DNA from: Propionibacteriaceae bacterium | GTDB lineage: Bacteria > Actinomycetota > Actinomycetes > Propionibacteriales > Propionibacteriaceae | Length of the DNA: 64,000 bases | NCBI GenBank assembly: GCA_009782915.1 | Contig: WRIC01000003.1 | Location: forward strand, 15,195-79,194 | Direction of reading: 5' to 3' | Shown: piece after piece, positions 1 to 60,548 of the stretch | Numbering within the stretch: position 1 is the first letter of the stretch | Layout: each line of letters starts with the position of its first letter | Notes under the pieces: model-generated | What the model was told of the DNA's origin: nothing | The model's database searches: none | Seen by the model: the letters and a program-made list of their open reading frames with translations, nothing else | Program-made: the position numbers and the translations under genes

Positions 1-798
1 ACCCGACCCCGAACCACGATCAAATATGTCCGAGAAATCAGTAAACGGATACATCCACATGGAGGAAAGATTGTGGGCAACATGCAAAGCGATACTCGCC
101 TCAATCCCACCGGTGCGATAGGCCAGCCACCACAACAGCAAAGCCAAACAAAAATAGAACACATTCAGCCACAAATCCTGGGCATGGTGAAGATAAGCAA
201 ACACCGCAGCCGGGAGAATAGCTGACAGGACCAACCCCAGCCAGCGTACTGGAACAATCGCGCACACCAGTTTCGGCAGCAGGGCCCTCGCCTGAAACTC
301 CTCGCCCGCACACTGCAACGGAGTCGTCAGCAGTATCACAATAATCATGAACCAGGTGTACGGCTTCAACTCCATGTCGGCCAACCCGAAACTATCAGCA
401 CCCACGACAGCAAACTCACCCAGAGTCAACACCACGTACCCAAGAACAAAAATCCCCAAACACTGAAGCAGCCACCTCCAGCGCATCCGCCCCACCACCG
501 AAACCATCCAGCCGAACCCTTGGCGGAAAAAAATCAACCCAACCAGGGTGCACAGCACAATGTCAAAGGCCAGTACGAGGTTGTTCGACAGGAAAGAAAC
601 TGGGGTTGTTTTCGCTGACTCATCCAAAGTAGAGGGATCGACGAGCACCATGATGACCATGTAGAGCACCATCACAAAAAACGACACCACCGCGTAGGAA
701 GCCAAGGCGATCAGCGCCCACCACCAGCGACGCGACGGCACCTGGAAAAACTCCATGTAGTTCTTCACAGTGACCGGTAGGACTGGGCCTTCCCTCAT
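1..798 (-). CDS. CPBP family intramembrane glutamic endopeptidase (CAAX/Abi type), third paralog of a tandem trio; its 3' end runs off the window
   Basis: It is absent from the ORF track because there is no stop inside the window. My minus-strand translation from the ATG at 796-798 gives MREGPVLPVTVKNYMEFFQVPSRRWWWALIAL...PLQCAGEEFQARALLPKL...LAYRTGGIEASIALHVAHN. This is colinear with the two upstream paralogs. There is an ATGA start/stop overlap with 795..1913. Confidence 0.75.
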   Translation of the reverse strand, partial: MREGPVLPVTVKNYMEFFQVPSRRWWWALIALASYAVVSFFVMVLYMVIMVLVDPSTLDESAKTTPVSFLSNNLVLAFDIVLCTLVGLIFFRQGFGWMVSVVGRMRWRWLLQCLGIFVLGYVVLTLGEFAVVGADSFGLADMELKPYTWFMIIVILLTTPLQCAGEEFQARALLPKLVCAIVPVRWLGLVLSAILPAAVFAYLHHAQDLWLNVFYFCLALLLWWLAYRTGGIEASIALHVAHNLSSMWMYPFTDFSDIFDRGSGSG

Positions 799-1913
799 GA
801 TGCTGGGCCTTTCGTGATGGTCTCATTATTGTAGGGAAATGTCGCTGCGGGGAAAACCGGAACCGCGGTGTTGGGCACGAGGGCAGGATCGGGAACCCAA
901 AGACGTACTGTGGTGTTGATCCGGGGAAGATCCTCCTGGGAAGCAACAACCGGAGGATCGATCGTGACATCTGACCAGAAGGCTCGCGGTTTCACCACTA
1001 CAGGTTGACCAGCTGCTGGGGCGGAGAGTCGAACTATTCCTCGCCGTCGCCCGACATAGTCGATGAGAAGAACCAGACCAAGATCCAACCCAATGTAGGC
1101 CAATCCAAAGGGCGACCCGGTTCCGTCGCTTCGATCAAATAAGTCAGAAAAATCCTGGAAAGGAATCATCCACAAGGCCCACAGGTTGTTGGCCAGGTGG
1201 AGTGCGATGCTGGCCTCAATACCGCCAGTACGGTAGGCAAGCCACCACGCCATGAGAGCGAAACAAACGTAGTCGAGGTTCAGCCAGAAATCCTGCGCAT
1301 TGTGCATAACCGTGAACAAGATTGCCGGCAAAATAGCTGAGAGAAGCAACCCCAGGTGACGAATCGGTACGATCGCGGCGATCAATTTGGGCAGAAGAGC
1401 TCGTGCCTGAAACTCCTCCCCCGCGCATTGCAGGGGGGTGGTCAACACTATCGTGGCGATCACAAACCAGGTGTAGGGTTTCCATTCCATGTCATCTGCG
1501 CCGAAGTGTTCAACCCCCAAGAACGCAATCTCCCCCAGAGCCACCACACCATATCCGACCATGGCGATCCCCAAGGCGAGCAACAACCACCGCCACCGCA
1601 TACGCCCCACCACAGAACACAACCACCCGAAACCCTGGCGGAAAAACACGAAAGCAATGAGGGTGCACAAGGCAATATCGGTTGCGTTGTAAAGGTTGTT
1701 GCCTAAGAAATCCGACGGTGAGGTGGTGTCAGGGTCCTCAAATGCGTTCTGATCGAGCCTAACCCACACGAGCACCACGATCACCATGACCACCACGAAC
1801 GCAACACCGTACGCCACTAATGCGATCAGAGCCCACCACCATCGTCGTGCAGGCACCTGGAAGAACTCATAATAATTTTTCCAGGTGATTGGCAGAAACC
1901 CCCCTCGATTCAC
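795..1913 (-). CDS. CPBP family intramembrane glutamic endopeptidase (CAAX/Abi type) with a Pro-rich C-terminal tail of about 100 aa
   Basis: 372-aa ORF with multiple TM segments. Motifs present: EEFQAR (EExxxR), FTVMHNAQD and HLANN (HxxxN). Confidence 0.85.
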   Translation of the reverse strand: MNRGGFLPITWKNYYEFFQVPARRWWWALIALVAYGVAFVVVMVIVVLVWVRLDQNAFEDPDTTSPSDFLGNNLYNATDIALCTLIAFVFFRQGFGWLCSVVGRMRWRWLLLALGIAMVGYGVVALGEIAFLGVEHFGADDMEWKPYTWFVIATIVLTTPLQCAGEEFQARALLPKLIAAIVPIRHLGLLLSAILPAILFTVMHNAQDFWLNLDYVCFALMAWWLAYRTGGIEASIALHLANNLWALWMIPFQDFSDLFDRSDGTGSPFGLAYIGLDLGLVLLIDYVGRRRGIVRLSAPAAGQPVVVKPRAFWSDVTIDPPVVASQEDLPRINTTVRLWVPDPALVPNTAVPVFPAATFPYNNETITKGPAS

Positions 1914-3130
1914 TGGTGCGGGTCCTCAGGTGGCTGGTTTTCCGGAAGCTCCTCCCAAGGCCGAGCACGATCAGCGGTCAACAAACCCGAGCTGCCAAAA
2001 CCACCGGTAGGTATCTGTGGAACGGCAGGTGCTTGTCTGTCAGGTGTGGAGCCCCAGGTTGGCGCCAACTCGCGGAAAGTGGTGGTGATGCGGGGAAGAT
2101 CCTGCTCGGTGGCAGTCACTGGTGGTTCGGCGGTGAGATTGGTGAGGAAAAGCTGAGGTTTGGACACTATCGCCCAGGCAGCTGCGGGGGCAGATTCCCG
2201 TACCAAGCCACGACGGCGGGCCAAGAAATCAAGAAGAAGAACCAAGACCAACTGGCCAAAAAGATCAACCAAAAGCAAAGGGGAGGCCACACCCGACGAA
2301 CGGTCAAACATGTCAGTCATATCCATGAACGGCAGCATCGACATGGAGAACATGTTGTTGACCACATGGAAAGCAATGGATGCCTCCAAACCGCCCGTAC
2401 GGTAAACCAACCACCACAGCATGAAACCCAAGGTGACGTAATAGATGTTCAGCCACAGGTCTTCAGCCATGTGCATGAGCATGAAACATGTGGTCGACAC
2501 CACAGCCGCCACCACGAGGCCAGCCAGCTTGTGGGGAATCAGCGCGGTGAGAATGCGGGAGAAAAACCCTCGCACAACAATCTCTTCGCTCGCCGATTGG
2601 AGCGGAGTGGTCAGCAGGATAGCCCCGATCATGAACCAGGTGTACGGCTTGAGCTCCAGTGGTCCGAAAAACTCCCGTGGATCAGACAAGACAACAATAT
2701 CGATGAAGTAGATCACCACGTACCCAAGAGCAAGGACCCCCAGAGCCAACCCAAACCACGACCAGCGCATCCTGCCCACCACCGACATGAGCCACCCAAA
2801 ACCCTGGCGATAGAACAGCCATGAGAAGAGGATCGCCACCGGAATGAGTGAAACAATGAGCACATTGTTGAACAGGAAAACACTCGGGGAGCCCACCATC
2901 CCTTGAGTTAACTGCATCAACTCAGGATCAATGACCATAGCAATGATCGACACAATAAGGAGAACAAAAAAAGCGGCTACCAGGAACGCGACTAAAACAA
3001 TCAGGGCCCACCACCAGCGCCGCGCCGGCACCTGATAGAAGCGCATATAGTCTTTGAGCTCAGTGGGCTGAAACAACTTCGGTTGCACCGGGGCATACTG
3101 AGTGGCAAATGGATCAGTCATCTGTGACAT
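1910..3130 (-). CDS. CPBP family intramembrane glutamic endopeptidase (CAAX/Abi type), first gene of the tandem trio
   Basis: 406-aa ORF with motifs SEEIVVR, MLMHMAED and FHVVNN. It has the same architecture as its neighbours. There is a 4-nt overlap with the next paralog. Confidence 0.85.
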   Translation of the reverse strand: MSQMTDPFATQYAPVQPKLFQPTELKDYMRFYQVPARRWWWALIVLVAFLVAAFFVLLIVSIIAMVIDPELMQLTQGMVGSPSVFLFNNVLIVSLIPVAILFSWLFYRQGFGWLMSVVGRMRWSWFGLALGVLALGYVVIYFIDIVVLSDPREFFGPLELKPYTWFMIGAILLTTPLQSASEEIVVRGFFSRILTALIPHKLAGLVVAAVVSTTCFMLMHMAEDLWLNIYYVTLGFMLWWLVYRTGGLEASIAFHVVNNMFSMSMLPFMDMTDMFDRSSGVASPLLLVDLFGQLVLVLLLDFLARRRGLVRESAPAAAWAIVSKPQLFLTNLTAEPPVTATEQDLPRITTTFRELAPTWGSTPDRQAPAVPQIPTGGFGSSGLLTADRARPWEELPENQPPEDPHQ

Positions 3131-3190
3131 ACCACTAGTCTGTCACAATCTGATGCCGTGCGTGTCAGTGGGGACAGGCACCACCAATCA

Positions 3191-3522
3191 CGTCCCCCTG
3201 CGGAGCGTAGCGACTCGCAGGGCCCAGACCACCTAGTTGTTTGACTGTAGAGTCTGGATTCTGCGAGTCGCTGCGCTCCGCAGAATGACGATGTTAGAGG
3301 GTACGTGTGACAGGGGGACGGCATGACAGGCACCCCTGTCACGTCCTATTCCCCTTGCCGTCTCCCTGAGTTCCCCTTCCGCGTCTCCCTGCGCGAAGTC
3401 GCAGGGTCCAGACTACACAGCTGCCCAACTGTGGAGTCTGGATTCTGCGAGTCGCTTCGCTCCGCAGAATGACGATGTTCGAAGGCATGGGACTGTGACA
3501 GTTCATACCGTCCCCCTGTCAC
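3191..3522. repeat. Repeat island: two complete Family-B bipartite palindromic elements (3191-3290, 3383-3474) and two Family-A GTGAC-box hairpins (3305-3341, 3495-3522)
   Basis: The sequence reads CCCTGCGGAGCGTAGCGACTCGCAGGGCCCAGAC, spacer, GTCTGGATTCTGCGAGTCGCTGCGCTCCGCAGAATGACG. It also contains GTGACAGTTCATACCGTCCCCCTGTCAC. Both recur throughout the window. Confidence 0.9.
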
Positions 3523-3538
3523 GAACTAGAATGGTCTT

Positions 3539-4063
3539 ATGAGTATGTCTGCTGATGTTCGCGAATGGAAGAACTGGGTTTCCTTGGTGGCCCGGTTGAT
3601 CCTGGGGGTGGTGCTCGTGTGGGCGGGGTTGTCGAAAATCACCAACCTGGAGGGGTCGGTCCATGCGACCTCGGCGTACCAAATCCTGCCCTATGAGCTC
3701 GCCCGAGTGGTGGGGTACGCTCTACCGTTTATCGAAATCGCCGTGGGAGCCATGCTCATTGTGGGGTTCTTCACCCGTGCGATGGGGTTGATTGGTGCGC
3801 TGATGATGCTTGCTTTTGTGATCGCCATCGCTAGTGTGTGGGCGCGCGGGATCGCCATCGACTGTGGATGCTTCGGTGACGGTGGACCCATCGACCCCGC
3901 TGAAGCCATGGCGAAATACCCCTGGGAGATCGCCCGAGACCTCGGCTTGATGGCGTGCGGAATCTGGCTCACCCTGCGCAAGAAGCAGTTCCTCGCAGTC
4001 GATGGCTGGTTGTTCCGCCCCGTCGAAGAGATCCTGGCCCGCCAAGACCGTCGACACCGCTGA
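3539..4063 (+). CDS. MauE/DoxX family membrane protein (redox-associated)
   Basis: 174-aa ORF with 4 predicted TM segments and the CGCFG motif typical of MauE-like proteins. It lies next to the sulfide-oxidation genes. Confidence 0.7.
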   Translation: MSMSADVREWKNWVSLVARLILGVVLVWAGLSKITNLEGSVHATSAYQILPYELARVVGYALPFIEIAVGAMLIVGFFTRAMGLIGALMMLAFVIAIASVWARGIAIDCGCFGDGGPIDPAEAMAKYPWEIARDLGLMACGIWLTLRKKQFLAVDGWLFRPVEEILARQDRRHR

Positions 4064-4383
4064 GTGTGACCAAAGGGGACGGGGCGTTTGTCACACGCGC
4101 CCGTCACCCTGCGGAGCGAAGCGACTCGCAGGGTCCAGAAACACCAGTTGTATGACTGTGGAGTCTGGGTTCTGCGACTTCGCGCAGAATGACGGGGTAG
4201 GGTTGCGCAGAATGACGGGGTAGGGTTGCGCAGAAAGACAGGGAAGGGATGCCACTCGGCGGTAGTGTGACAAGGTGCCTGTCCCCTTGTCACAGTCCCG
4301 CGCAGGTGTGACAGTTCATACCGTCCCCTTGTCACACTGTCGCACTCACGCAGAGTGGGTCAGTTAGTACCGTCCCCAGTCAC
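4064..4383. repeat. Repeat island containing Family A and Family B units and a tandem array
   Basis: Components by direct reading: a Family-A unit (4064-4095); a Family-B element (4097-4190); a 23-bp tandem array GCGCAGAATGACGGGGTAGGGTT x2.7 (4182-4245); and three Family-A hairpins (4266-4293, 4307-4334, about 4358-4383). Each unit matches copies elsewhere in the window. Confidence 0.9.
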
Positions 4384-4385
4384 AC

Positions 4386-4556
4386 TTAGCGGTGATGGGA
4401 GGCGGCAATCACCTTCAGCATGCGGATATTGATGCCGATCAGGCGCCATAGTTGGACGAATACGTTCTTGCGTGCCTTCAAGGTTTTCTTGGTGGGCAGG
4501 GGTGCAACAGCGATGCGCTCCATGATCCCCGGATCAAATTCTAAAACTTCGTTCAT
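4386..4556 (-). CDS. Candidate 56-aa small protein immediately downstream of sqr
   Basis: It falls below the ORF-track size cut-off. My translation is MNEVLEFDPGIMERIAVAPLPTKKTLKARKNVFVQLWRLIGINIRMLKVIAASHHR*. It starts 10 nt after the sqr stop on the same strand and has an amphipathic or hydrophobic C-terminal half. I recognise no family. Confidence 0.35.
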   Translation of the reverse strand: MNEVLEFDPGIMERIAVAPLPTKKTLKARKNVFVQLWRLIGINIRMLKVIAASHHR

Positions 4557-4566
4557 GGTTTTTCTC

Positions 4567-6024
4567 TCATTCCGGGATCATCCACCACAGGATGCGTGCC
4601 TTGGCTTTGTGAAGGAACAGGATGTGCAGCAAATGCTTCATCCAGTGCCCAGCGAGACCGATCTCACCAGAGGTGCCTTTCTCGTCACGCCCAGTGTTCG
4701 GATGGGCCTGCCAATCGGGTACGACCGGGTGCATCGTCATCGACGCGGCAGAACCCTTAAACAGTCCCATTCCCGCTGATGCGATACATGCCGCACCCAT
4801 GCCAGTCATGGGCGAGGAGTACGCCGGTTTGTTCTTGCCTTTGATGCGATCCACCACCGTCAACACAACAGTCTTGGCGATGATACCCGAGGGCATTCCA
4901 GTACGCGGGGGTGCGGGAGTGATGACCGTACCATTCGGCGAAGTGCGCGGAACAGAAATCTGGTGGGGTGGAGCAAACGCAATCCCAGCTGCAAACATGT
5001 TGTCGTACTTCGGGGACTGATAGGTCTTCGGCCAATCATCAGCCGTCCAATTCTCGTAGGCCCCAGCGCCATAGTTGGCGTCCACTTTCATGAACCCAGC
5101 CGGGTTGAACACCTCGTCAGTGATGTCCTTGCCTTTCTTATCGAACGCTTTCATGTCAGCGCCCTTGAACGGTGGAAGGAGCATCGCAAAATCGAACTCC
5201 AACTCATGGGTGGAGCCATCCAACTGCTCATAGTGGATGACACCGGGTTCGATCTTCGAGCAATGGGCGCCCACGATCGCTTGGACACCGCGCTCACGAT
5301 AGAGCGACTCTGTCCACAGCCGTGACGTGGTTTGGAACCCCTGCTGGGTGAACGTCATGCCCCCCACACCGAAGTCGCCGAGCTCGGCTTCATTGGTGAG
5401 ATAGTAGACCTCCGCATTGTCGCGTACGCCCTCCTCGCGCAGAACATGCTCAAGGTTGAAGGTGTACTCGAAAGCCGCGCCCTCGCAGGTGCAGGTTCCG
5501 TGACCGGTACCCACCACGAAACGCAGTTTCTTTCCTTGACGGCAAGACTCGATCGCCTTCTGGAGATGCTCATTGGCCTCATGGGCGTGGGATGCCGTAC
5601 ACACCGACACAGTATTGCCGGCGTCAGGTCCCAACCCCTCAGTGGCCGCGAAATTCAACTTCGGGCCGGTGCAGTTGATGAGATAGTCATACTCGATCTC
5701 CACAGTTTGACCCTTGGTCTCTTCCATGGTCGATTCGGCCACTACGTACGGTGACTCGTGACCATTGCCACCCTCAGGGTAGACGGCTGTGGCGAGCCCC
5801 TGATGGAACTCGATCTTCTTGCGTTGATAGAGGGGCGCCAAGGGGAACAGCACCTTCTCTTGTTTCATTTTGCCCACACCCACCCAAATATTGGAGGGAA
5901 TCCAATTCCATTGGGAGTTTGGTGAGACAACGATCACCTCGTGGTTTTTGCCGAGGATTCTCTTGGCATGCAGTGCTGCGGTGTGACCTGCCACACCCGC
6001 ACCCAAAATCAGTAGACGCGCCAT
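4567..6024 (-). CDS. sqr: Sulfide:quinone oxidoreductase (FAD-dependent pyridine nucleotide-disulfide oxidoreductase family)
   Basis: 485 aa with an N-terminal GAGVAG dinucleotide fold. Three SQR-type cysteine contexts are present: VCTASHA, GTCTCEGAAFEY and GAACIASAG. It is divergent from a CoADR-rhodanese gene. Confidence 0.75.
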   Translation of the reverse strand: MARLLILGAGVAGHTAALHAKRILGKNHEVIVVSPNSQWNWIPSNIWVGVGKMKQEKVLFPLAPLYQRKKIEFHQGLATAVYPEGGNGHESPYVVAESTMEETKGQTVEIEYDYLINCTGPKLNFAATEGLGPDAGNTVSVCTASHAHEANEHLQKAIESCRQGKKLRFVVGTGHGTCTCEGAAFEYTFNLEHVLREEGVRDNAEVYYLTNEAELGDFGVGGMTFTQQGFQTTSRLWTESLYRERGVQAIVGAHCSKIEPGVIHYEQLDGSTHELEFDFAMLLPPFKGADMKAFDKKGKDITDEVFNPAGFMKVDANYGAGAYENWTADDWPKTYQSPKYDNMFAAGIAFAPPHQISVPRTSPNGTVITPAPPRTGMPSGIIAKTVVLTVVDRIKGKNKPAYSSPMTGMGAACIASAGMGLFKGSAASMTMHPVVPDWQAHPNTGRDEKGTSGEIGLAGHWMKHLLHILFLHKAKARILWWMIPE

Positions 6025-6111
6025 GGGGCCACCTGCTTAGCTAGTTTCATGGTGCCAACGTACACCCGCACCACCGGTCACACAAGGGCACAACCAAAGA
6101 CATGGACACAC

Positions 6112-6140
6112 TAGCCAAGGTATACCCCCTGGGGTATACT
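6112..6140 (+). promoter_or_regulatory. Putative promoter of the CoADR-RHD gene (-35 TAGCCA, -10 TATACT), compatible with a leaderless or near-leaderless transcript
   Basis: TATACT lies at 6135-6140 and ends 7 nt before the ATG at 6148. No Shine-Dalgarno sequence lies between them. A 17-nt spacer separates it from a weak -35 at 6112-6117. Confidence 0.4.
6120..6139. promoter_or_regulatory. Perfect 9-2-9 palindrome GTATACCCC-CT-GGGGTATAC; a CsoR/CstR-type operator candidate
   Basis: I read it directly. It sits in the 123-bp sqr / CoADR-RHD divergent intergenic region and overlaps the putative -10. It resembles the ATACCC...GGGTAT operators of the CsoR/CstR family, as recalled from memory. Confidence 0.5.
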
Positions 6141-6147
6141 GGTCGCC

Positions 6148-7827
6148 ATGTCTGTTCATAGATATATCATCGTTGGTGGGGTCGCTGGCGGAATGTCCGC
6201 AGCTGCGCGACTACGCAGGCTCGACGAGTCAGCCTCCATCATTGTGCTCGAGCGCGGGAACTATGTGTCCTTCGCCAACTGTGGGCTACCGTACTACGTC
6301 TCCGGGGAGATAGAAGCTGAAGACGCCCTGCTCCTGCAGACACCAGCATCCCTAGCTGCATCGCTCAACTTGGAGGTACGTGTTGGGCATGAGGTGGTGG
6401 CCCTTGATGCCAGCAAACATCAGGTGAAGGTCGCCACCCCCAGCGGTGAAGAGGTTCTCGAGTACGACACACTGATTCTCTCCCCCGGGGCTGTGGCCTC
6501 GCGCCCCCCCATTGAAGGACTCGACCACCCACGCGTCCACACTTTGCGAACCATCGATGATGCACGCAAACTAGAGAAAGCCGCAGGGTTGGGCGGAACC
6601 GCGGTCGTGCTGGGTGCGGGATTCATCGGACTCGAAGGGGCCGAAGCCCTCGCGCATCGCGGACTAGACGTCCATGTGGTCGAATTCGCCCCCCACGTAC
6701 TGCCACCGTTAGAAAATGAACTAGCAACCCTCGTACGCCAAGAAATGCGGGCCATGGGAATGGCGGTCCGCGAATCGGTGGGCGCATCCAAGATCGACGA
6801 CGAAGGGGGTCGGGCGCTGGTTCACCTCAACAACGGGGAGACGATCACCGCGGACACTGTTGTGTTGGCCACCGGGGTGACCCCCGACACTGCGTTGTTC
6901 GCTGAAGCCGGTGTAGTGTGCGAGCGCGGATTCATCGTGGTGGACGCCCATGGTAAAACCAATGTGGAGGATGTTTATGCCGTCGGGGACGCCACGTTGA
7001 GCAAGGATGCGATCACCAAGAAGGATCGCCCCAACCAGCTTGCTGGGCCCGCCAACCGTGCTGGGCGACTCGTCGCTGATGCACTCGGACCTCGTGGTGC
7101 TCGCGATATCCCGACCGTACTAGGAACCGCAATCCTGCGCATGGGGAAACTCACTGCTGCGATGACCGGCGCGAATCGTGGTGCCCTGGAGGATGCGGGG
7201 ATCTCGTACACCACCATTCACGTGCATCCCGCCAACCACGCAGGTTATTTCCCTGGTGGTACACAGATGCACCTCATCGTGCACATAGATCCCACCACCG
7301 GGCGAATCCTGGGCGCACAAGGTGTGGGCCAGGATGGGGTTGATAAACGCATCGACGTTCTGGCGACCGCGATCCGTGGTGGGCTCACTGCTGCGGACCT
7401 CATCGACATTGACCTGTGTTACTCCCCGCCGTTTGGCTCCGCCAAAGACCCCATCACCATGATCGGTTTCGTGGCCGACAACGTGTTGAGTGAGCAGACT
7501 TCACTGTGGTACCCCGAGCAGTTGGAGTGGGCGCGTAGTTCTGCTTTGGTCTTGGACGTACGTACCGCCAAAGAATTCGCGACCGGGCACCTGCCCGAGG
7601 CGGTGAACATCCCCCATGTGGAGTTGCGCGGGCGCCTGGAGGAGGTACGCGCGTTAGCTGGGGATCGCCCCATCGCGGTGATGTGCCAATCGGGGGTACG
7701 CTCCTACATTGCACACCGAATCCTCGCCGGCAACGGTTTCACCTCACAGACCCTCTCCGGTGGCATGCTCACCCTGCGGGCCTGGCTAGGTGACGAAGCA
7801 TCCACCGTACTCACCGCCACGGTGTGA
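6148..7827 (+). CDS. CoA-disulfide reductase with a C-terminal rhodanese domain (CoADR-RHD / CoA persulfide reductase type)
   Basis: 559 aa. It has a GGVAGG FAD fold, the redox Cys motif SFANCGLPY, a second GAGFIG fold, and a C-terminal rhodanese active-site loop CQSGVRS. Confidence 0.85.
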   Translation: MSVHRYIIVGGVAGGMSAAARLRRLDESASIIVLERGNYVSFANCGLPYYVSGEIEAEDALLLQTPASLAASLNLEVRVGHEVVALDASKHQVKVATPSGEEVLEYDTLILSPGAVASRPPIEGLDHPRVHTLRTIDDARKLEKAAGLGGTAVVLGAGFIGLEGAEALAHRGLDVHVVEFAPHVLPPLENELATLVRQEMRAMGMAVRESVGASKIDDEGGRALVHLNNGETITADTVVLATGVTPDTALFAEAGVVCERGFIVVDAHGKTNVEDVYAVGDATLSKDAITKKDRPNQLAGPANRAGRLVADALGPRGARDIPTVLGTAILRMGKLTAAMTGANRGALEDAGISYTTIHVHPANHAGYFPGGTQMHLIVHIDPTTGRILGAQGVGQDGVDKRIDVLATAIRGGLTAADLIDIDLCYSPPFGSAKDPITMIGFVADNVLSEQTSLWYPEQLEWARSSALVLDVRTAKEFATGHLPEAVNIPHVELRGRLEEVRALAGDRPIAVMCQSGVRSYIAHRILAGNGFTSQTLSGGMLTLRAWLGDEASTVLTATV

Positions 7828-7950
7828 CAGGGGGACGGTATGAATTGTCACACCCCACCTCGTCACACCCCTGCAACACAAGGGGACGGGGCGTTTGTCA
7901 CACCCTGGGCGTTTGTCACACCCTATGTGACAAACGCCCCGTCCCCTTGT
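7823..7950. repeat. Four Family-A GTGAC-box units, including an inverted pair
   Basis: The units are GTGACAGGGGGACGGTATGAATTGTCAC, CAAGGGGACGGGGCGTTTGTCAC, GGGCGTTTGTCACA and GTGACAAACGCCCCGTCCCCTTG. The first contains the TGA stop of the preceding gene. Confidence 0.9.
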
Positions 7951-8000
7951 GTTGCTGACCAATAGACCAACTAGTTCTCGACCAACCGAAAGGAATCACT

Positions 8001-8183
8001 ATGTGTCGACCAGTACCCTGCAATGTCTGCGGGAAAACAACCTGGGCCGGATGTGGCCAGCATGTTGCCCAGGTCAAAGCAACAGTCCCCGCGAGCGATT
8101 GGTGCGGCGGCAAGCACACCCCCGAGGAGATCGCAGCCGCCAAACCCGAGGGTGGATTCTTCTCCCGCATGTTCGGCCGCTAA
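8001..8183 (+). CDS. Small cysteine-rich protein (60 aa), conserved-hypothetical type
   Basis: The sequence begins MCRPVPCNVCGKTTWAGCGQHV...CGG. An AAGGA RBS lies 7 nt upstream. I recall similar small Cys-rich ORFs in other actinobacteria but cannot name the family. Confidence 0.55.
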   Translation: MCRPVPCNVCGKTTWAGCGQHVAQVKATVPASDWCGGKHTPEEIAAAKPEGGFFSRMFGR

Positions 8184-8294
8184 GCCCCACCTCTGCCACG
8201 CTCACCCACCGTGTCACGCTAATCCACCGTGTCTATTCGCGGAACACACCCAGCCCGTCTTTCCGCGGAGCGGACAGTGAGGCACAACCCCCTC

Positions 8295-8451
8295 GTCACC
8301 CTGCGGAGCACTGCGAGTCGCGCTGGCGCGCTCCGCAGCACCACGACGCAGACCAAGGGCAGGGATGCTTGCATTCATGCCGAGGTCAAGGAAGTGGTTG
8401 ACGAACGAAGTGAGGAACACAGGCTCCGCGACTCGCAGGGTCCAGACTACC
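8295..8451 (+). repeat. Left copy of a 157-bp perfect inverted repeat flanking adk
   Basis: A base-by-base comparison shows 8295-8451 equals the reverse complement of 9356-9512. It is a Family-B long arm interrupted by a roughly 77-bp insert (8342-8418), followed by a Family-B L arm. Confidence 0.95.
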
Positions 8452-8620
8452 CAGTTGTCCCACTGTGGAGTCTGGATTCTGCGACTTCGCGCAGAAAGAC
8501 GGGGTCGGGTGCGCAGAAAGACGGATTGGGGGGTGATAAACGCCGACGGACGGGGGTGTGTTAAATACGCCCACACTCGCAACTGTCATTCTGCGCGAAG
8601 TCGCAGAATCCAGACTCCAC
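8452..8620. repeat. Family-B spacer and R arm, GCGCAGAAAGACGG short tandem, Family-A variant (GTGATAAACGCCGACGGACGG), and a solitary Family-B arm (8585-8620)
   Basis: By direct reading, each unit matches other copies in the window. Confidence 0.8.
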
Positions 8621-8649
8621 ATTCACACGAATCAGGCTTCTGGGCGCTA

Positions 8650-9213
8650 TCACTTGTGAAGTGAACTGATAATCCGATCATGGACGGTGTCCACATCGCC
8701 GAGACCGTCGACCTCAACGAGGAGACCGCGTTCGCGGTAGAAGGTGAGAAGCGGGGAGGTCTCATGCTCGTACACCTCAATACGGTGGCGCATCGTCTCC
8801 TCGGTGTCATCGGTACGCCCCTCAATGGCAGCCCTCTTCTTCATGCGCTCGGCTAAAGTTGCAGCATCAACCACGAGGGAGATCGCTGCATCCAGTTCCA
8901 TATCGAGCCCCGCAAGGATTTCCTCCAAATCATGGGCCTGGTGGATCGTACGTGGGAAACCATCCAACAGGAACCCTGGTTGAGCATCCGGCTGGGCAAG
9001 TCGGTCAGCGACAAGAGCCTCCACAACCGAATCTGGTACGAGATCACCAGCGTCGATGATCGCTTTCACCTGGAGACCCAACTCGGTTTCGTTAGCAATA
9101 TTCCACCTGAAGAGTGCACCAGTCGAAATCTCTGGGATCCCCAGTTCCTCAGCAACTTTCGTACCCTGTGTTCCCTTCCCGGCGCCCGGAGGACCCATGA
9201 TCAGCAATCTCAC
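8650..9213 (-). CDS. adk: Adenylate kinase, short (zinc-less lid) type
   Basis: 187 aa with P-loop GPPGAGKGT and LLDGFPRT. GTG start with an AAAGGA RBS. It is not embedded in the usual secY-adk-map context. Confidence 0.9.
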   Translation of the reverse strand: MRLLIMGPPGAGKGTQGTKVAEELGIPEISTGALFRWNIANETELGLQVKAIIDAGDLVPDSVVEALVADRLAQPDAQPGFLLDGFPRTIHQAHDLEEILAGLDMELDAAISLVVDAATLAERMKKRAAIEGRTDDTEETMRHRIEVYEHETSPLLTFYRERGLLVEVDGLGDVDTVHDRIISSLHK

Positions 9214-9299
9214 CTACTCATCCTTTCCCTAGGATTCCCCATCACCATGAACTCTACTCTTTAGACCAGTACGCTAGCCAGCAACGCTACCCCGATCCA

Positions 9300-9355
9300 G
9301 TCATTCTGCGGAGCGTAGCGACTCGCAGAATCCAGAAACCGCAGTCGGCCAACTA
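9300..9355. repeat. Family-B arm plus spacer adjoining the right inverted-repeat copy
   Basis: GTCATTCTGCGGAGCGTAGCGACTCGCAGAATCCAGA followed by a spacer. Confidence 0.85.
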
Positions 9356-9512
9356 GGTAGTCTGGACCCTGCGAGTCGCGGAGCCTGTGTTCCTCACTTC
9401 GTTCGTCAACCACTTCCTTGACCTCGGCATGAATGCAAGCATCCCTGCCCTTGGTCTGCGTCGTGGTGCTGCGGAGCGCGCCAGCGCGACTCGCAGTGCT
9501 CCGCAGGGTGAC
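9356..9512 (-). repeat. Right copy of the 157-bp perfect inverted repeat flanking adk
   Basis: It is the reverse complement of 8295-8451 with no mismatch over 157 bp, including the same nested insert (9389-9465). Confidence 0.95.
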
Positions 9513-9573
9513 AGCGTGGGCAACACAAGGGGACATACCTTTGTGTCGCGCAGAAAAACGGAATAGAGGGAGT

Positions 9574-9600
9574 GTGACAAGGGGACAGTCCCCATGTCAC
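9574..9600. repeat. Family-A hairpin GTGACAAGGGGACAGTCCCCATGTCAC, overlapping the pheA stop codon
   Basis: By direct reading, the stop TGA is the complement of 9597-9599, inside the GTCAC. Confidence 0.85.
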
Positions 9601-10523
9601 GAGTCCAAGGATTCCAGGGGGTTGAGAATGGTGAACATCCAGGTGTCCGCCTCTTCGAAATCACCGTCGCGTACCCCATCGTTGACAACCTGGGGTACCC
9701 GATCGGCGCGAGGGTAGGAACCCAGAAACAGAACCTCACGACACGTACGATGCAGTCCCATGAGCGCTTCCTGAAGTCGGCGCTCAGCAATGTGGCCCTC
9801 AGCATCAATCGAGAAATGATAGTTGCCGATCTTGTCCTTGGTGGGGCGCGACTCGATGCGACACAGATTGATCCCGCGCAAAGAAAACTGCTCCAAAACC
9901 TCCATCAGGCCACCGGGATGATCCTCATTCAAGTGAACAACCAAACTAGTTTTGTCATGGCCGCATGGTGGTTCGGGCGGGAAAGGCCGGGCCACCAAGA
10001 TGAAGCGGGTGACCGCATTCGGGTTGTCAGCGACACCCGAAGCCAGCGCCTTCAACCCATAAAGTTCACCAGCAGCCGAGGAACAAATCGCCGCGTCGTA
10101 GGGCGAATCCAGGTGGGAGACCTGCTCTGCTGCGGCAGCCGTGGACCCCTTCTCGGTGACCTCCGCATCAGGAAGATTCTCGGCCAGCCACTGGCGTACC
10201 TGGGCTGCCGCATGAGGATGGGTGACAATGTGACGTACGTCGTTCATCGAAGTGCCCGGGCGACTGTAGAGCCCGAACACCACAGGAAGCAGAATTTCCG
10301 CACGAATCTGGAGCAGCTCACCAGCCGATAGGGAATCACTAGTAGCCGTGACGATTCCCTCGATCGAGTTTTCGATGGGTACGATCCCGGCCTCCACATG
10401 ACCAGCTCTGACCGCATCCAGGCAGGAGGTCACCGAAGGGAAAGGCTGAGTCTCACTGTCCAACCCCAAGGTCAGCAGGGCCTCATGTGTGAAAGTCCCC
10501 TCGGGACCCAGGTATCCAAGCAT
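9597..10523 (-). CDS. pheA: Prephenate dehydratase
   Basis: 308 aa. N-terminal LGPEGTFTHEA, PDT domain, ESRPTK motif and a C-terminal ACT domain. Confidence 0.9.
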   Translation of the reverse strand: MLGYLGPEGTFTHEALLTLGLDSETQPFPSVTSCLDAVRAGHVEAGIVPIENSIEGIVTATSDSLSAGELLQIRAEILLPVVFGLYSRPGTSMNDVRHIVTHPHAAAQVRQWLAENLPDAEVTEKGSTAAAAEQVSHLDSPYDAAICSSAAGELYGLKALASGVADNPNAVTRFILVARPFPPEPPCGHDKTSLVVHLNEDHPGGLMEVLEQFSLRGINLCRIESRPTKDKIGNYHFSIDAEGHIAERRLQEALMGLHRTCREVLFLGSYPRADRVPQVVNDGVRDGDFEEADTWMFTILNPLESLDS

Positions 10524-10670: not shown

Positions 10671-10685
10671 AGGTGCAACTGCCCA

Positions 10686-10800
10686 AAGGGGACGGGGCGT
10701 TTGTCACATTCTGACAACAATTGTTGTTTAGCCAGACGTGTTCCATTGAGTTTCAGGTAGTGATGGGGTGGCGGGAAATGTGACAAACGCCCCGTCCCCA
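10686..10800 (+). mobile_element. Family-C MITE-like element, copy A (about 115 bp, 24-26-bp terminal inverted repeats)
   Basis: The termini are AAGGGGACGGGGCGTTTGTCACATT and AAATGTGACAAACGCCCCGTCCCC. The internal core is GACAACAATTGTTGTT...CAGACGTGTT...GGTGG. It aligns with 47378-47492 and, in reverse orientation, with 60433-60547. Confidence 0.8.
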
Positions 10801-10817
10801 TTTGTCCGTTTGTCACA

Positions 10818-11875: not shown

Positions 11876-13264
11876 ATGCTGGGGACTATGGACATCGAGG
11901 TAGCTCAGTGGTTGGTGTCGGGTGACGCTGAGGAAGCCATCTCCTTCGCCGAGAGTTTCGATGATCCCACCAGCCTGCGTACCGGCGAAAAACTACGCCA
12001 GCTCCTCCCTGCTGACAAGGCTGTTGCCGTACTCGATCTGGTCACTTGTCGCCGACGGGCCGTACCCAAACTCGGTGAGCTCGCCCCCCTGCTCTATCTC
12101 ACCCGGGACTCCCTCGAACAGGCCACCCGCTGGGATGTGGCCCAGTGGAGGGCACGGCGCCTAGTCGAGTACGCGGTGACCAGTGTGACGGACGGCGGAT
12201 GTGGTGTCGGAATCGACTCCCTAGGATTCCTGGCTGCCGGACTCAACGTTATCGCCCTGGAACGCGACCCTGTGTTGGCCACTTTTGCTACCGCGAACCT
12301 GCGCGCTGTTGTGGGGGAGCAATCCACTCAATGGGGACCCACCACAGTTCAGATCGATGGACCCTGCGACGGAGCCTGTGCTGCGGAGCGCGCCAGCGCG
12401 ACTCGCAATGCGCAGGGAGACGACCCACTCCGTCTTTCTGCGCGAAGTCGCAGAATCCAGAAACCACAGTCATGCGGTGATGATGCGGCTCCATCCTTTG
12501 AGGTACGAACTATCGACCTCACCGAGTCAGAGGATTGGATGCCCACCGAGGACCACCACGTGCTATTCCTGGACCCTGCTCGGCGTACTTCGCGGGGACG
12601 CTCCTGGGACATCAAAGACCTAAGTCCCTCGTGGGAGTTTGTTGAATCGATGATCGGACGGGTTCCCGGTGGGGTGGTGGCCAAACTCGCCCCAGGGTTC
12701 CCTCATCACCTGCTCCGCGATGAGGACCACGTCACCTGGGTTTCTCACCACGGCACCTTGGTGGAAACCACACTGTGGGCGGGTCTCGATGTTCCCTCAC
12801 GCCGGGATGTGATCGTGATCACCAAAGGAGCGAAGGGGCTTGGCCCGCAACTGAACACTCTCCACATCGGCGATCACCAGCTTCCCGCCCCTGGTCCTCT
12901 TGGGCAGTACGTCTATGAGCCTGATCCTGCGATCATTCGTGCTGGTGGAATCCCGGATATTGCCCAGCTCACCTCTAGTCATCCTGTCGCTGAATCCATC
13001 GCGTACCTCACCAGCGACCTTCTGATCCCAACCCCCTTTGCCACTGCTTTCCGGGTGATCGAGGTTTTCCCCTATAGCGAGAAGGCCCTCAAGTCGTGGG
13101 TACGCTCCACCAAGATCGGCACCTTGGAGATTAAGGTACGCGGACTCGGCATCGACCCCGCTGAGCTTCGCCCCCGCCTCAAACTCGCAGGCAAAACCCA
13201 GGCCACCATCATCCTCACCCCCACCATCCATGGCCCGCAGAACCTGGTAGTTGAGCGACTATAA
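11876..13264 (+). CDS. Class I SAM-dependent methyltransferase with a THUMP-like C-terminal region, carrying a repeat-derived in-frame insert
   Basis: 462-aa continuous ORF with SAM motif I DGGCGVGIDS. The C-terminal half resembles THUMP-like-domain methyltransferases. The call is from memory. Confidence 0.7.
   Translation: MLGTMDIEVAQWLVSGDAEEAISFAESFDDPTSLRTGEKLRQLLPADKAVAVLDLVTCRRRAVPKLGELAPLLYLTRDSLEQATRWDVAQWRARRLVEYAVTSVTDGGCGVGIDSLGFLAAGLNVIALERDPVLATFATANLRAVVGEQSTQWGPTTVQIDGPCDGACAAERASATRNAQGDDPLRLSARSRRIQKPQSCGDDAAPSFEVRTIDLTESEDWMPTEDHHVLFLDPARRTSRGRSWDIKDLSPSWEFVESMIGRVPGGVVAKLAPGFPHHLLRDEDHVTWVSHHGTLVETTLWAGLDVPSRRDVIVITKGAKGLGPQLNTLHIGDHQLPAPGPLGQYVYEPDPAIIRAGGIPDIAQLTSSHPVAESIAYLTSDLLIPTPFATAFRVIEVFPYSEKALKSWVRSTKIGTLEIKVRGLGIDPAELRPRLKLAGKTQATIILTPTIHGPQNLVVERL
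12358..12470 (+). repeat. Family-B element (long arm plus short arm) lying in frame inside the methyltransferase ORF
   Basis: The DNA reads GGACCCTGCGACGGAGCCTGTGCTGCGGAGCGCGCCAGCGCGACTCGCAATGCGCAGGGAGACG...CGTCTTTCTGCGCGAAGTCGCAGAATCCAGAAACC. It is translated as GPCDGACAAERASATRNAQGDDPLRLSARSRRIQKPQ. Confidence 0.9.
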
Positions 13265-13265: not shown

Positions 13266-13288
13266 AAAGGGGACGGGGCGTTTGTCAC
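13266..13288. repeat. Family-A unit AAAGGGGACGGGGCGTTTGTCAC between two convergent genes
   Basis: It contains the cydDC stop codon (complement of 13285-13287). Confidence 0.9.
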
Positions 13289-17050: not shown

Positions 17051-17172
17051 GTCATTCCGCGGAGCACTGCGAGTCGCTTCGCTCCGCGGAATGACGGTGG
17101 TGGTGGGTCGGTGGGTGTGTGACAAACGCCCCGTCCCCTGGGACAGGTGTGTGACAAACGCCCCGTCCCCTG
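17051..17172. repeat. Family-B palindromic arm (17051-17095) and two Family-A units (17119-17140, 17151-17172)
   Basis: The arm is GTCATTCCGCGGAG...CTCCGCGGAATGAC. The Family-A units are GTGACAAACGCCCCGTCCCCTG x2. Confidence 0.9.
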
Positions 17173-18381: not shown

Positions 18382-18395
18382 GATTCATTCCTTTC

Positions 18396-19871
18396 TCAGT
18401 ACGCGAAGGAGAGCTCTTCGCCCTCATCCTTGATGGAAACCTTTTCAGCGGCTGGCAGACCCATCTTGATGTACTTGAGCAACAGGCCGACCTCAACTAC
18501 TGCGAGGAGACCATAGATTGCGGTGTACAACACCAGGGACAACCAGACGGGACCCGTACCCACAGTGGGGGAAAGGCCTTGAAGTGTTGGCATAACGCCG
18601 TTGACGATCCAGGGCTGACGACCCATCTCGGTGAAAATCCAACCGAAAGAGTTCGCAAGCAACGGAAGCACAGGCATGCAGATAGCCAAGCAGGTCCAGA
18701 ACCAACCGGGGTTTGGAACCTTGCCACCGCGTGTGACAACGAGCATCACGATGCCGCCCAGCATAGCTAGGAAGCCAATACCCATCATCAAGCGGAAGCT
18801 CCAGAAGGAAACACCCACGCTGGGGACCATGTTAGCTTCAGCCAACGACCCTTGGATAGCGGAATAGGAGGTGGTTTGTAGAGACGAACCTTCCACCCAT
18901 TCGCCAGCCTTACGATCAAAGAACCGATAGCCGTTGGGGCCAATCTGATTTGCTTTGACATCGTCAATGGTTTGAATGTTCTTCGTACCATAGAGCCAGT
19001 TCAGCAAACCTGGGAATACTTCAGCCTTGGGAACGATCTGGAAGCCAACCTTGGCAGAGTCAGCGAGTGGCTCTTTCAGGTTTTCAGCGGCAGCCATCTT
19101 CATGGGCTGGTGTGTCACCAGCTGCTTTCCGAGGAAGTCGCCAGTCACGATGGTGAAAACGCCAGCGATGACGAGAACCCATGCGCCCATCTTGAGGCCC
19201 TTGCGGTACGCGGTCAAGTCACCCTTGGGTGCCTTCTCCTTGGAATTCTTGACCAAGAGATAGAAAGCAGCACCAGCCATGAAACCACCAGCTGTCACGA
19301 AGGACGCTGCGATGGTGTGTGGCCACTGGGTGAGGAAGGCCGGGTTCAAGATCACCTGAAGGAGGCTATCCAGCTCTGCGCGCTGGGTGGCCGGGTTGTA
19401 GCTTGCACCCGTGGGGTTCTGCATCCACGCATTAGCTGCGACGATGAAGATTGATGAAATGAAGGTACCAATCGCGCCAAGCCAAATGGTGACGAGGTGG
19501 GCCTTCTTGGACAAGCGATCCCACCCGAAGATCCACATTCCAAGGAAGGTGGATTCGAGGAAGAACGCGATAAGGGCTTCAAGGGCGAGAGGAGCACCGA
19601 AGATGTCCCCGACGAAGCGGGAATACTCCGACCAGTTCATACCGAACTGGAACTCCTGCACGATACCCGTGACAACCCCCATTGCGAAGTTAATCAGAAA
19701 CAAACGTCCAAAGAACTTCGTCAAACGCAAATAGGCATCATTGCCTGTTTTGTTCCAGATGGTCTGTAGCACCGCGGTCAACACACTCAATGCGATCGTG
19801 AGAGGCACGAACAAGAAGTGGTAGACCGTTGTGATGCCAAACTGCCACCTGGCAATGGTATCCGGACTCAT
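18396..19871 (-). CDS. cydA: Cytochrome bd oxidase subunit I (proximal copy)
   Basis: 491 aa with WQFGITTVYHF (haem ligand His), WPHT, a Q-loop and GWIFTEMGRQPW. Confidence 0.9.
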   Translation of the reverse strand: MSPDTIARWQFGITTVYHFLFVPLTIALSVLTAVLQTIWNKTGNDAYLRLTKFFGRLFLINFAMGVVTGIVQEFQFGMNWSEYSRFVGDIFGAPLALEALIAFFLESTFLGMWIFGWDRLSKKAHLVTIWLGAIGTFISSIFIVAANAWMQNPTGASYNPATQRAELDSLLQVILNPAFLTQWPHTIAASFVTAGGFMAGAAFYLLVKNSKEKAPKGDLTAYRKGLKMGAWVLVIAGVFTIVTGDFLGKQLVTHQPMKMAAAENLKEPLADSAKVGFQIVPKAEVFPGLLNWLYGTKNIQTIDDVKANQIGPNGYRFFDRKAGEWVEGSSLQTTSYSAIQGSLAEANMVPSVGVSFWSFRLMMGIGFLAMLGGIVMLVVTRGGKVPNPGWFWTCLAICMPVLPLLANSFGWIFTEMGRQPWIVNGVMPTLQGLSPTVGTGPVWLSLVLYTAIYGLLAVVEVGLLLKYIKMGLPAAEKVSIKDEGEELSFAY

Positions 19872-35493: not shown

Positions 35494-35500
35494 ACCCCAT

Positions 35501-47492: not shown

Positions 47493-47500
47493 GGGTAGGG

Positions 47501-60547: not shown

Positions 60548-60548
60548 G

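Follow-up and report, generated by a model that had tools for sequence, protein, structure and literature searches.

The two arms of the long inverted repeat that surrounds the adenylate kinase gene adk in this Propionibacteriaceae genome are halves of palindromic, REPIN-like doublets of about 215 bp, and they are not special to adk. In the 64-kb stretch of DNA that was analysed (the window), 14 arms of a long type, nine of a short type and six of a type termed Family B were found, about 29 altogether, where none is expected by chance. They form approximately 20 clusters, nearly all located between open reading frames, and about 12% of the window is covered by repeats. The same arm types also occur in a related genome (L003). 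As a whole explanation we consider it probable that the adk arms belong to this family, that a single recent copying of one module from the right to the left side of the gene created the perfect repeat, and that adk itself has been a bystander.

A repeat search across the window showed that positions 8295-8451 are the exact reverse complement of 9356-9512 (157/157), in agreement with the initial annotation. This pair is the longest exact repeat in either orientation in the window; the runners-up measure 57 bp (tandem) and 43 bp. Inward of the perfect arms, the next 33 nt contain six mismatches (18%), and similarity extends to about 8509 and 9291 (92% over 222 nt, perfect part included). The looser similarity had previously been placed on the outer sides, where comparison of the arm flanks revealed a random level only. 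At a divergence of 18%, an uninterrupted run of 157 identical positions would arise with a probability of about 3e-14, so the perfect repeat reflects a discrete and recent copy event rather than family-level similarity. The 904-bp interval between the arms had been described as containing only adk. It does hold one real gene, but further pieces of repeats are present within 8452-9355: each doublet has its second arm there, and tail repeats (8489-8533) and one single arm (8585-8628) lie in it as well. The coordinates of all features are compiled below.

Table. Repeat elements and gene features at the adk locus (window coordinates).
Feature	Position	Strand	Evidence or remarks
Left arm of perfect inverted repeat, outer arm of left doublet	8295..8451		100% in ENA contigs L001 and L021 and JGI contig L045
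Layout of left arm	8295-8309; 8310-8341; 8342-8420; 8421-8451		Host arm; Family-B module; 79-bp insertion; remaining module and host arm
Right arm, outer arm of right doublet	9356..9512		Insertion at 9387-9465; 100% with both junctions in JGI contig L043, outer junction also in ENA contig L019
Segment that would invert by inter-arm recombination (904 bp)	8452..9355		Arrangement of L045
Insertion, left copy	8342..8420		79 bp net, CAC at both junctions; sequence comparison
Insertion, right copy	9387..9465		Reverse complement of left copy; sequence comparison
Whole left element	8295..8533		Arm, loop (~8452-8465), short-type second arm (~8466-8510), tandem 22-nt tail (8489-8511, 8511-8533)
Whole right element	9300..9512		Long-type second arm (9300-9336), loop, outer arm; RNA fold z = -4.9
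Direct repeats GCGACTCGCAG in right element	9318-9328, 9486-9496		Bound the 157 bp missing in L044
Single short-type arm just downstream of adk	8585..8628		Inverted repeat with 8464-8500 (33 nt exact)
adk, adenylate kinase (187 aa, short type without lid zinc finger)	8650..9213	-	NF001381
-10-like TAGAGT within AGAGTAGAGTT, ~40 nt upstream of adk start	9250..9260	-	Also upstream of adk in L003; sequence comparison

Each side of adk carries one doublet, whose outer arm contains a nested 39-bp Family-B module that itself bears a 79-bp insertion; the second arms differ in type, being short on the left and long on the right. Folded as RNA, both whole elements form hairpins (z = -4.9 on the right, z = -3.5 on the left). 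The four intact Family-B copies of the window (at approximately 11322, 12421 in reverse complement, 28899 and 62944) read ...GCAGCACAGGCTCC..., and it is at this point that extra sequence is present in both adk-flanking arms. The shared insert of about 77 bp reported in the initial annotation is the same insertion in both arms, although its net size is 79 bp (76 bp plus a 3-bp duplication, CAC). Its absence from the remainder of the window was confirmed, and no further copy was present in any fetched locus. When all fetched loci were searched with the insert by sensitive blastn, the known copies were the sole matches besides a weak, non-significant similarity over 20 nt within another nested arm (L001:430-449). 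No match to an exact 28-mer of the insert occurred in the genome_contigs collection, which does not contain this species, or in the JGI metagenome_contigs. As the same-species sequence searched comprises 64 kb plus about 13 kb, the remainder of the genome may contain further insert-bearing modules or a cognate transposase. The insertion lacks terminal inverted repeats, folds no better on its own than shuffled sequences (z = -0.43), and contains no tRNA-like gene detectable by ARAGORN. At gathering thresholds, Rfam matched one tRNA only in the whole window. Two side observations concern the repeat content of the window: a coding gene contains one repeat copy in frame, and a distinct, true MITE-like family, whose perfect termini measure 24 bp, forms no part of the adk arms.

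The arms are copies of each other, as had been proposed in preference to independent insertions: they share the same 79-bp insertion and are identical at 157 of 157 positions, while the rest of their host elements is only about 75-82% alike. A contig of a sister strain (L044) is informative as to when this occurred. From 9600 down to 8160 it shows two mismatches to the window in about 800 aligned nucleotides (approximately 99.8% identity), whereas identity falls to about 91% in the adjacent pheA coding sequence. The left arm of L044 is canonical and unmodified (GAGTCGC-TTC-GCTCCGCAG), which implies that the copy is very recent. The right element of L044 is a deletion derivative that lacks 157 bp between the 11-bp direct repeats GCGACTCGCAG and keeps the Family-B junction GGAGC/ACTGCGAGTCGC. 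In total, at least four large indels and one module copy distinguish the adk spacers of the window from those of L044.

These comparisons are consistent with the following course of events. The adk arms are two neighbouring members of a dense REPIN-like family that has colonised the intergenic spacers of this genome, with one doublet (arm, loop, inverted arm) on each side of adk. A single, very recent copying step would then have carried the Family-B module with its insertion from the right element to the left one, whose outer arm had been plain until then. We infer the direction of this step from one short contig, L044. The route may have been short-tract gene conversion, the two inverted elements being 0.9 kb apart, or the module may have inserted into the hairpin tip of the arm. 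The two routes look alike here: the host-arm bases beside the module are already identical in the unconverted left arm of L044. That one event would have produced the 157-bp perfect inverted repeat, which now offers a substrate on which homologous recombination of the RecA type could invert the 904-bp segment, and such an inversion would be nearly neutral.

A collapsed or misjoined repeat, the alternative raised in the initial annotation, is hardly credible as the source of the perfect identity. Short-read assemblies do break inside the arms, and ENA contig L001 has a different junction at 9389. However, three independent assemblies agree, and as both arms are reproduced in two assemblies besides that of the window, the repeat is not an artefact. 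JGI contig L043 corresponds to window positions 8580-10197 and includes the complete right arm with both junctions; L001 and L021 contain the complete left arm with both junctions; and L019 spans the outer junction on the right and continues for 141 nt into the arm, the whole insert included. The ends of L019 and L021 lie exactly 141 nt inside an arm, which is where an assembly with k = 141 should stop on meeting a true repeat. Moreover, the ancestral synteny is restored by the arrangement in the window, an outcome not expected from a chance misjoin. Contig L001 corresponds to window positions 8295-9389 and departs from the window exactly at the insert boundary, where it continues into an intact Family-B copy beside an NfeD/flotillin locus. 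The order NfeD-flotillin-SpoU-LytB in L001 matches that of a relative (L041), in which NfeD has a neighbour other than adk. This makes the join in L001 either derived or chimeric, and adjacency of NfeD and adk is not ancestral. It may represent a rearranged strain or a MEGAHIT chimera. A search for NfeD homologues yielded proteins of at most 74% identity and no same-species locus, and an adk-based scan of the JGI metagenome contigs likewise detected no same-species locus.

The product of adk matched the NCBIfam adenylate kinase model NF001381 over residues 1-186 (246 bits; cutoff 187), and its closest homologues are also named adenylate kinase. In two related Propionibacteriaceae MAGs (L002 and L003), whose adk is 79-81% identical, the order SQR-CoADR-p60-adk-pheA-p161 and the gene orientations are kept. 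No repeats surround adk in these relatives, and the spacers of L003 are nearly empty (39 bp and about 3 bp, versus 383 and 466 bp here). Gene order thus indicates that adk is a resident, ancestral gene that never moved and is a bystander to the repeats. That adk lies outside the secY-adk-map cluster, as pointed out in the initial annotation, holds, but this is a lineage-wide trait unrelated to the repeat, and L002 keeps map directly after adk. The motif at 9250-9260 is a candidate internal promoter, judged from its sequence and conservation; consensus scans for sigma-70 promoters and terminators returned nothing. The gene probably has its own promoter inside the 904-bp segment, with transcription predicted to begin near 9240-9250 on the minus strand.

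This evidence bears on two further suggestions, both of which we regard as very improbable. In one, the repeats would delimit adk, in the manner of a composite transposon, as a cassette that was mobilised, as raised in the initial annotation, or horizontally acquired. Besides its position outside the usual cluster, the contrast in L044 between the near-identical adk region and the diverged pheA, and its location beside a different locus in L001, could be taken to favour this idea. However, adk keeps its place and orientation between p60/CoADR and pheA in L002, L003 and L044, map follows adk in L002, no transposase or recombinase is present nearby, and the deviating context in L001 is derived or chimeric given the neighbour of NfeD in L041. 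The island of near-identity was rejected as the mark of a cassette: the tract passes both arms, extending from 9600 to at least 8160, and its boundary coincides with the pheA stop rather than with the repeats. The other suggestion is a programmed invertible switch in which a site-specific recombinase acts on the arms and controls adk expression. An inverted repeat around a single gene and the inverted arrangement in contig L045 would fit such a switch. Against it, the genes from about 10 kb to the left to 11 kb to the right of the locus encode no recombinase domain, the arms are ordinary members of a dispersed family, a near-identical strain does without them, relatives have no repeats around adk, and adk is normally an essential housekeeping gene with a likely promoter inside the segment. 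Recombinase and transposase domains were absent from the genes of 1-20.5 kb (Pfam) and from 30 scanned ORFs of 21.6-58.9 kb, with about ten ORFs either unscanned or without Pfam match.

A role of the arms at the RNA level, either as a long stem around adk in a pheA-adk read-through transcript that is processed by RNase III, or as local hairpins acting as terminators or mRNA stabilisers, is improbable, though less so than a cassette or a switch. REP elements have been reported in both of the latter functions. In the predicted minimum-free-energy structure of a transcript from 9525 to 8285 both arms pair completely, each element also folds locally, and co-transcription of pheA and adk is plausibly ancestral given that the two genes are only 39 bp apart in L003. 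However, complementary arms pair automatically, and their pairing is no evidence of function. The long read-through stem proposed in the initial annotation is thermodynamically trivial and requires transcription from upstream of 9512, whereas the conserved -10-like motif argues for an internal promoter. In addition, local hairpins would form first during transcription, no terminator-like site was found, Rfam gave no match at E <= 1 over 8150-9650, and the near-identical strain does without the arms.

A further reading, compatible with the preferred explanation of a recent module copy, is that the arms recombine homologously and invert the adk segment within the population, so that both orientations coexist. 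We regard it as quite possible, if somewhat short of probable. Contigs in both arrangements were recovered from one JGI sample (3300002505): contig L043 has the orientation of the window (pheA flank, arm, right interior), whereas L045 joins p60 flank, arm and right interior. L045 matches window positions 8119-8451 followed by the reverse complement of 8580-9355 at 1109 of 1109 nt, so that the inversion anticipated in the initial annotation has a base-for-base counterpart, although mis-traversal by the assembler could yield the same contig. A perfect identity of 157 bp is well above the minimum for RecA recombination, and the candidate promoter inside the segment means that inversion should be tolerated. 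On the other hand, the arm is longer than the apparent k-mer (k = 81 is suggested by the overlap of exactly 80 nt between L022 and L045) and probably also longer than the reads. A de Bruijn graph does not then tell the two orientations apart, and both traversals can be output by a merging pipeline. The inner junction is the same in both JGI contigs, and no contig was found to join the pheA flank through an arm to the left interior, as the reciprocal junction would. When the peptide encoded by the arm was compared with 5.8 billion proteins, the only matches were two JGI ORFs, those of L043 and L045; exact look-ups of three arm-spanning ORFs gave no matches. Because the arm exceeds short reads and assembly k-mers, L043 and L045 suggest flipping but fall short of proof, and recombinational inversion of the segment is put forward tentatively.

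Among known systems, the elements at adk most closely resemble REPINs, that is, REP doublets which form hairpins and are mobilised by RAYT transposases (Bertels & Rainey 2011, PMC3116915, PMC3337134). Shared traits are the two short imperfect palindromes inverted around a spacer in a hairpin of about 110 nt, the tens of copies per 64 kb that lie mostly between genes, the occurrence of single arms and of more complex arrangements, and an arm sequence conserved across related species. Differences are the lack of a RAYT (Y1 transposase) among the scanned genes of the window, the nesting of a module within an arm and of an insertion within the module, and the in-frame copy. Furthermore, described REPIN-RAYT systems are mainly proteobacterial, whereas the host here is actinobacterial. 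Like the Correia elements of Neisseria, which are MITEs, the adk elements are small, non-autonomous, inverted-repeat-bearing, dispersed, located beside genes and possible substrates of recombination. The doublets have inverted arms, but no target-site duplication or defined terminal repeats of a transposase family could be recognised in them; L003, which is empty at adk, is too diverged to define a target-site duplication, and the insertion with CAC at both junctions is without terminal inverted repeats.

Long inverted repeats, such as those of plastids (flip-flop) or copies of rrn or IS, invert by homologous recombination and are kept identical by copy correction. At adk, too, perfect inverted copies bracket a segment and the isomers differ in orientation only, but the arms are a mere 157 bp long and very recent, and one short-read contig suggests the second isomer. 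Invertons have repeats of about 10-40 bp, usually an adjacent invertase gene, and a segment that usually contains a promoter or part of a gene. Apart from an inverted repeat around a small segment the adk locus differs in every respect: its 157-bp arms belong to a dispersed family, a whole housekeeping gene is enclosed, and no recombinase domain occurs within about 10 kb on either side. Nor does it resemble a composite transposon or mobile cassette, given the synteny in L002, L003 and L044 and the lack of a transposase; L001 is the sole deviant context.

The analysis reveals no new regulatory or mobile system for adk and no demonstrated function of the repeats. A wider reading, which we find rather doubtful, is that uncultured Propionibacteriaceae, which probably come from termite guts, contain an undescribed, hierarchically nesting palindromic family that copies its sub-modules into hairpin tips of other copies, even in frame into genes, and has just made a 157-bp perfect inverted repeat around an essential gene whose segment flip-flops naturally (L043 versus L045). 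The same elements would drive larger rearrangements, such as the join in L001, and a rapid turnover of indels between strains less than 0.2% apart in point substitutions. Should sequencing reads bear out both orientations, the locus would be a natural, recombination-driven flip-flop of a housekeeping gene without a dedicated recombinase. The locus also calls for caution in metagenome assembly of such repeat-rich genomes. The sister strain is almost free of point differences, yet the spacers around adk differ by large indels and by one module copy that led to a long perfect inverted repeat. The locus thus offers a dated, step-by-step example of interspersed palindromic repeats restructuring a bacterial chromosome.

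Upon re-alignment, the 157-bp perfect inverted repeat reported around adk was recovered in full: the reverse complement of 9356-9512 matched window positions 8295-8451 at 157 of 157 nucleotides. An exhaustive maximal exact repeat search of the 64-kb window ranked it as the longest exact repeat in either orientation, followed by a 57-bp tandem repeat and by matches of 43 bp and 41 bp between repeat copies. Arm-versus-arm alignment reached 222 nt at 92% identity with all differences confined to the final 65 nt, six mismatches falling within the first 33 nt inward of the perfect block. The initial annotation had described looser similarity outward of both arms, but the extension is inward only; outside, similarity is at random level. 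At 18% divergence, a run of 157 consecutive identities has a chance of about 3e-14; the block must thus be a discrete recent copy, which family resemblance does not explain. The 904-bp interval between the arms contains one real gene, adk, as had been noted. The window DNA is chromosomal; its G+C content is 56%, and its genes include rpsR, rplI, dnaB, pgi, uppS, xseA and cydABDC.

Features of the adk locus and of the repeat families (window coordinates)
Feature	Position	Strand	Remarks
Left doublet	8295-8510		tail repeats extend to 8533
Right doublet	9300-9512
adk	8650..9213	minus	187 aa; NCBIfam NF001381, 246 bits (cutoff 187)
79-bp insertion	8342-8420 (left), 9387-9465 (right)		CAC at both junctions
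Duplicated doublet tails	8489-8533, 4190-4240, 43400-43460, 56621-56724
Second family, MITE-like units (three pairs)	10684-10803, 47376-47493, 60431-60548
Second family, other sites	7873-7955, 4075-4094, 13269-13288, 17119-17170, 27868-27909, 36737-36791
Third palindromic repeat	35495-35548, 62860-62913, 63894-63946		at gene ends

Assembly error, which had been raised as a possible source of the perfect identity, was rejected because both arms and all four junctions are reproduced outside the window. ENA ERZ27257320 is a MEGAHIT assembly (k = 141) of a strain nearly the same as that of the window. Its contig L021 corresponds to window 1-8435 (one mismatch) and its contig L019 to 20523-9372 (two mismatches). 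Both end exactly 141 nt into an arm, which is the behaviour of a k = 141 graph at a true repeat with two outer flanks. A third contig, L001, matches 8295-9389 at 100%, from the start of the left arm through adk to 34 nt into the right arm. In JGI 3300002505, contig L043 is the exact reverse complement of 8580-10197, spanning the end of pheA, the complete right arm and adk.

The nearest reference genomes are two Propionibacteriaceae MAGs, Co333_bin13 (L002; adk identity 81%) and Nt197P3bin38 (L003; 79-80%). In both, the order and orientations of the genes for SQR, CoA-disulfide reductase, a 60-aa protein (p60), adk, pheA and a MaoC-like protein are kept. The location of adk beside pheA and away from secY is therefore a lineage-wide trait, and its orientation in the window is ancestral. 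The spacers flanking adk measure 39 bp and about 3 bp in L003, against window spacers of 383 and 466 bp, which indicates that the repeats entered the adk spacers later. Judged from these sequence comparisons, adk is a bystander of the repeats. The proposal that it forms a mobilised cassette or composite transposon was dismissed on the grounds of conserved synteny and the lack of a detectable transposase: recombinase or transposase domains were found neither in the genes of window 1-20.5 kb nor in 30 further window ORFs scanned. In L002 a methionine aminopeptidase gene (map, 6561-7406) directly follows adk; this looks like a remnant of a secY-adk-map arrangement, lost or moved in the present sub-lineage. 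The matching site is window 8184-8649, and map is present there neither in the window nor in L003. The cysteine-rich p60 ORF (8001-8183), next to a CoA-disulfide reductase/rhodanese gene, is 75-85% identical in L002 and L003, where it has the same neighbour; it had no NCBIfam match.

Interspersed repeats cover about 12% of the window. The principal family consists of palindromic doublets about 110-120 bp long, in which an arm such as GTCACCCTGCGGAGCGAAGCGACTCGCAGGGTCCAGA is followed by a loop of about 20 nt and an inverted arm. Fourteen long-type and nine short-type arms were counted in the window, where none is expected by chance. The family also occurs elsewhere in L003 and thus predates this species. 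In Family B the apical loop of an arm is replaced by a 39-bp module, ACTGCGAGTCGCGCTGGCGCGCTCCGCAGCACAGGCTCC; four intact copies, hosted by both long-type and short-type arms, are found in the window and two more in L001. The perfect 157 bp coincide exactly with the outer arm of each doublet flanking adk and consist of (i) 15 nt of host arm, (ii) 32 nt of module, (iii) the 79-bp insertion, and (iv) 31 nt of module and host arm. The inner arm is of the short type in the left doublet but of the long type in the right one, so the two elements are not whole-element duplicates. Doublet tails (22-44 nt, ...GCGCAGAAAGACGGGGT...) are tandemly duplicated two to three times at several sites.

The insert had been seen only in the two arms, and neither the window nor any of the fetched loci yielded a further copy; an exact 28-mer of it had no match in JGI metagenome contigs or in reference genomes totalling 596 Gb. 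The insert lacks terminal inverted repeats, folds no better than shuffled sequences (z = -0.43), matches no Rfam family and is not tRNA-like.

The history of the copy can be traced with L044, a sister-strain contig (JGI 3300042604). From window position 9600 down to 8160, it differs at two positions in about 800 aligned nt, as opposed to 31 mismatches in 351 aligned nt of the pheA coding sequence (9601-9951). This sharp change in divergence coincides with the pheA stop rather than with the repeats, which suggests a recent inter-strain homologous-recombination tract or a strain-chimeric contig. Differences in the near-identical part are almost exclusively repeat indels. The right element of L044 is no more than a 45-bp hairpin, GTCACCCTGCGGAGCACTGCGAGTCGCTACGCTCCGCAGAATGAC, which keeps the Family-B junction between GGAGC and ACTGCGAGTCGC and lacks the 157 bp that the window has between 11-bp direct repeats (9318-9328 and 9486-9496); this hairpin therefore derives from a Family-B doublet by deletion. 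On its left side, L044 matches the window at 100% across 54 nt of loop and inner arm, and its arm is canonical (GAGTCGC-TTC-GCTCCGCAG) with neither module nor insertion. Its TTC loop is not regenerable by simple module deletion. Most economically, the left doublet of the ancestor would have been plain and the right one of the Family-B type; module and insertion would then have been copied into the left outer arm in the window lineage, and deletions would have followed in the L044 lineage. The view that the arms are duplicates or are being homogenised is thereby supported and refined to a recent copy into the left arm. Since point divergence between the two lineages in the adk region is below about 0.3%, recency alone accounts for the perfect identity, and continuing homogenisation is not needed. 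The copy may have been made by gene conversion or by insertion of a mobile module, and the position of the module, which occupies the hairpin tip in long-type as well as short-type arms, agrees with either. As the host-arm bases beside it were identical before the event, judging from the L044 left arm, the two routes are inseparable.

Inversion of the adk segment, proposed at the outset, finds a candidate product in L045, a second contig of JGI 3300002505. Its 1109 nt equal, base for base, window 8119-8451 joined to 8580-9355 in reverse complement, and thus lead from the p60 flank through the arm to the right-hand interior end, as in the inverted arrangement; L043 has the window orientation. 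A pair of this sort is what the initial annotation had proposed to look for. The gene caller predicted a chimeric 105-aa ORF in L045, which clusters with a 91-aa ORF of L043. There are reasons for caution, as assembler traversal of the arm could yield the same contig. A k-mer graph with k < 157 is identical for either orientation, and the overlap of L022 with L045 is exactly 80 nt, suggesting k = 81. Older JGI pipelines combined several short-read assemblies, a procedure that can output a repeat traversed both ways. Moreover, L043 and L045 share one inner junction; the reciprocal one appeared in none of the contigs of the collections searched. True coexistence of both orientations is quite possible, although we lean slightly against it. 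Inversion should be tolerated because a candidate internal adk promoter lies within the segment: AGAGTAGAGTT, with a -10-like TAGAGT (9250-9260), precedes the adk start by about 40 nt and is conserved upstream of adk in L003. A sigma-70 scan returned nothing. An RmuC-family gene is located at 39406-40902. In Escherichia coli, rmuC mutants show raised inversion at short inverted repeats; the presence of such a gene in an inverted-repeat-rich genome is probably coincidental.

The agreement of L001 (k141_2714619) with the window ends precisely at the inner boundary of the insert (9389). From this join (L001:9700-9830), the contig continues through an intact, insertion-free Family-B copy into NfeD, flotillin, SpoU, IspH and onward. 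This order matches L041, a locus of a relative in which NfeD has a neighbour other than adk, so the join is derived. Either ectopic recombination between repeat copies has rearranged a co-occurring strain, or MEGAHIT built a chimera via the shared repeat. The way in which the contigs connect (two flanks enter 8295-8435 and a single path leaves) implies that, in ERZ27257320, the right inner junction of the window type was either pruned or rare. As to the RNA level, the two arms are predicted to pair completely in a transcript across both, and each element is also predicted to fold locally. However, full pairing is automatic for complementary arms and needs pheA read-through, and the sister strain is without the arms altogether. 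Neither a terminator-like site nor an Rfam match was found at the arms/adk locus.

A Family-B arm plus a short arm lies in frame (12356-12472) within a THUMP-like methyltransferase ORF (11876..13264), adding about 22 residues; at the same site, the repeat in the L003 orthologue is shorter. This copy resembles the Rickettsia palindromic elements. A second family, built on the 20-mer GGGGACGGGGCGTTTGTCAC (n = 19, 18 perfect), includes MITE-like units of about 110-120 bp with perfect inverted termini of about 24 bp and related interiors. It was seen only in loci of this species; L002 and L003 showed no copy. A third repeat, the small palindrome CCGTCCACAGTTAGCGGTCATnATGACCGTTTnCTGTGGACGG, may represent a family of terminator hairpins. 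Elsewhere in the window, a 1466-aa ORF (23410-27810) had no Pfam match at E <= 1e-5, and paralogous duplications comprise tandem Rce1-like genes (17-554 and 1132-1669) and cytochrome bd subunit I genes (18390-19909 and 20029-21580).

The window elements, which have inverted REP-like arms, can form hairpins, are present in high copy number and tend to lie outside genes, appear to behave like REP/REPIN doublets (PMC3337134, PMC3116915) or MITEs. On 64 kb of sequence we would not file them as REPINs, which are defined by their RAYT association. They differ from invertons, as no recombinase was found and the long arms belong to a dispersed family, and from composite transposons in their conserved synteny and lack of a detected transposase. 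The nesting of insertion in module and module in arm, and the in-frame copy, are unusual details. The arms are interspersed palindromic repeats of a known kind that have created a recombination substrate, and interest in them would rise if read-level data showed a real flip-flop and real repeat-driven rearrangements.
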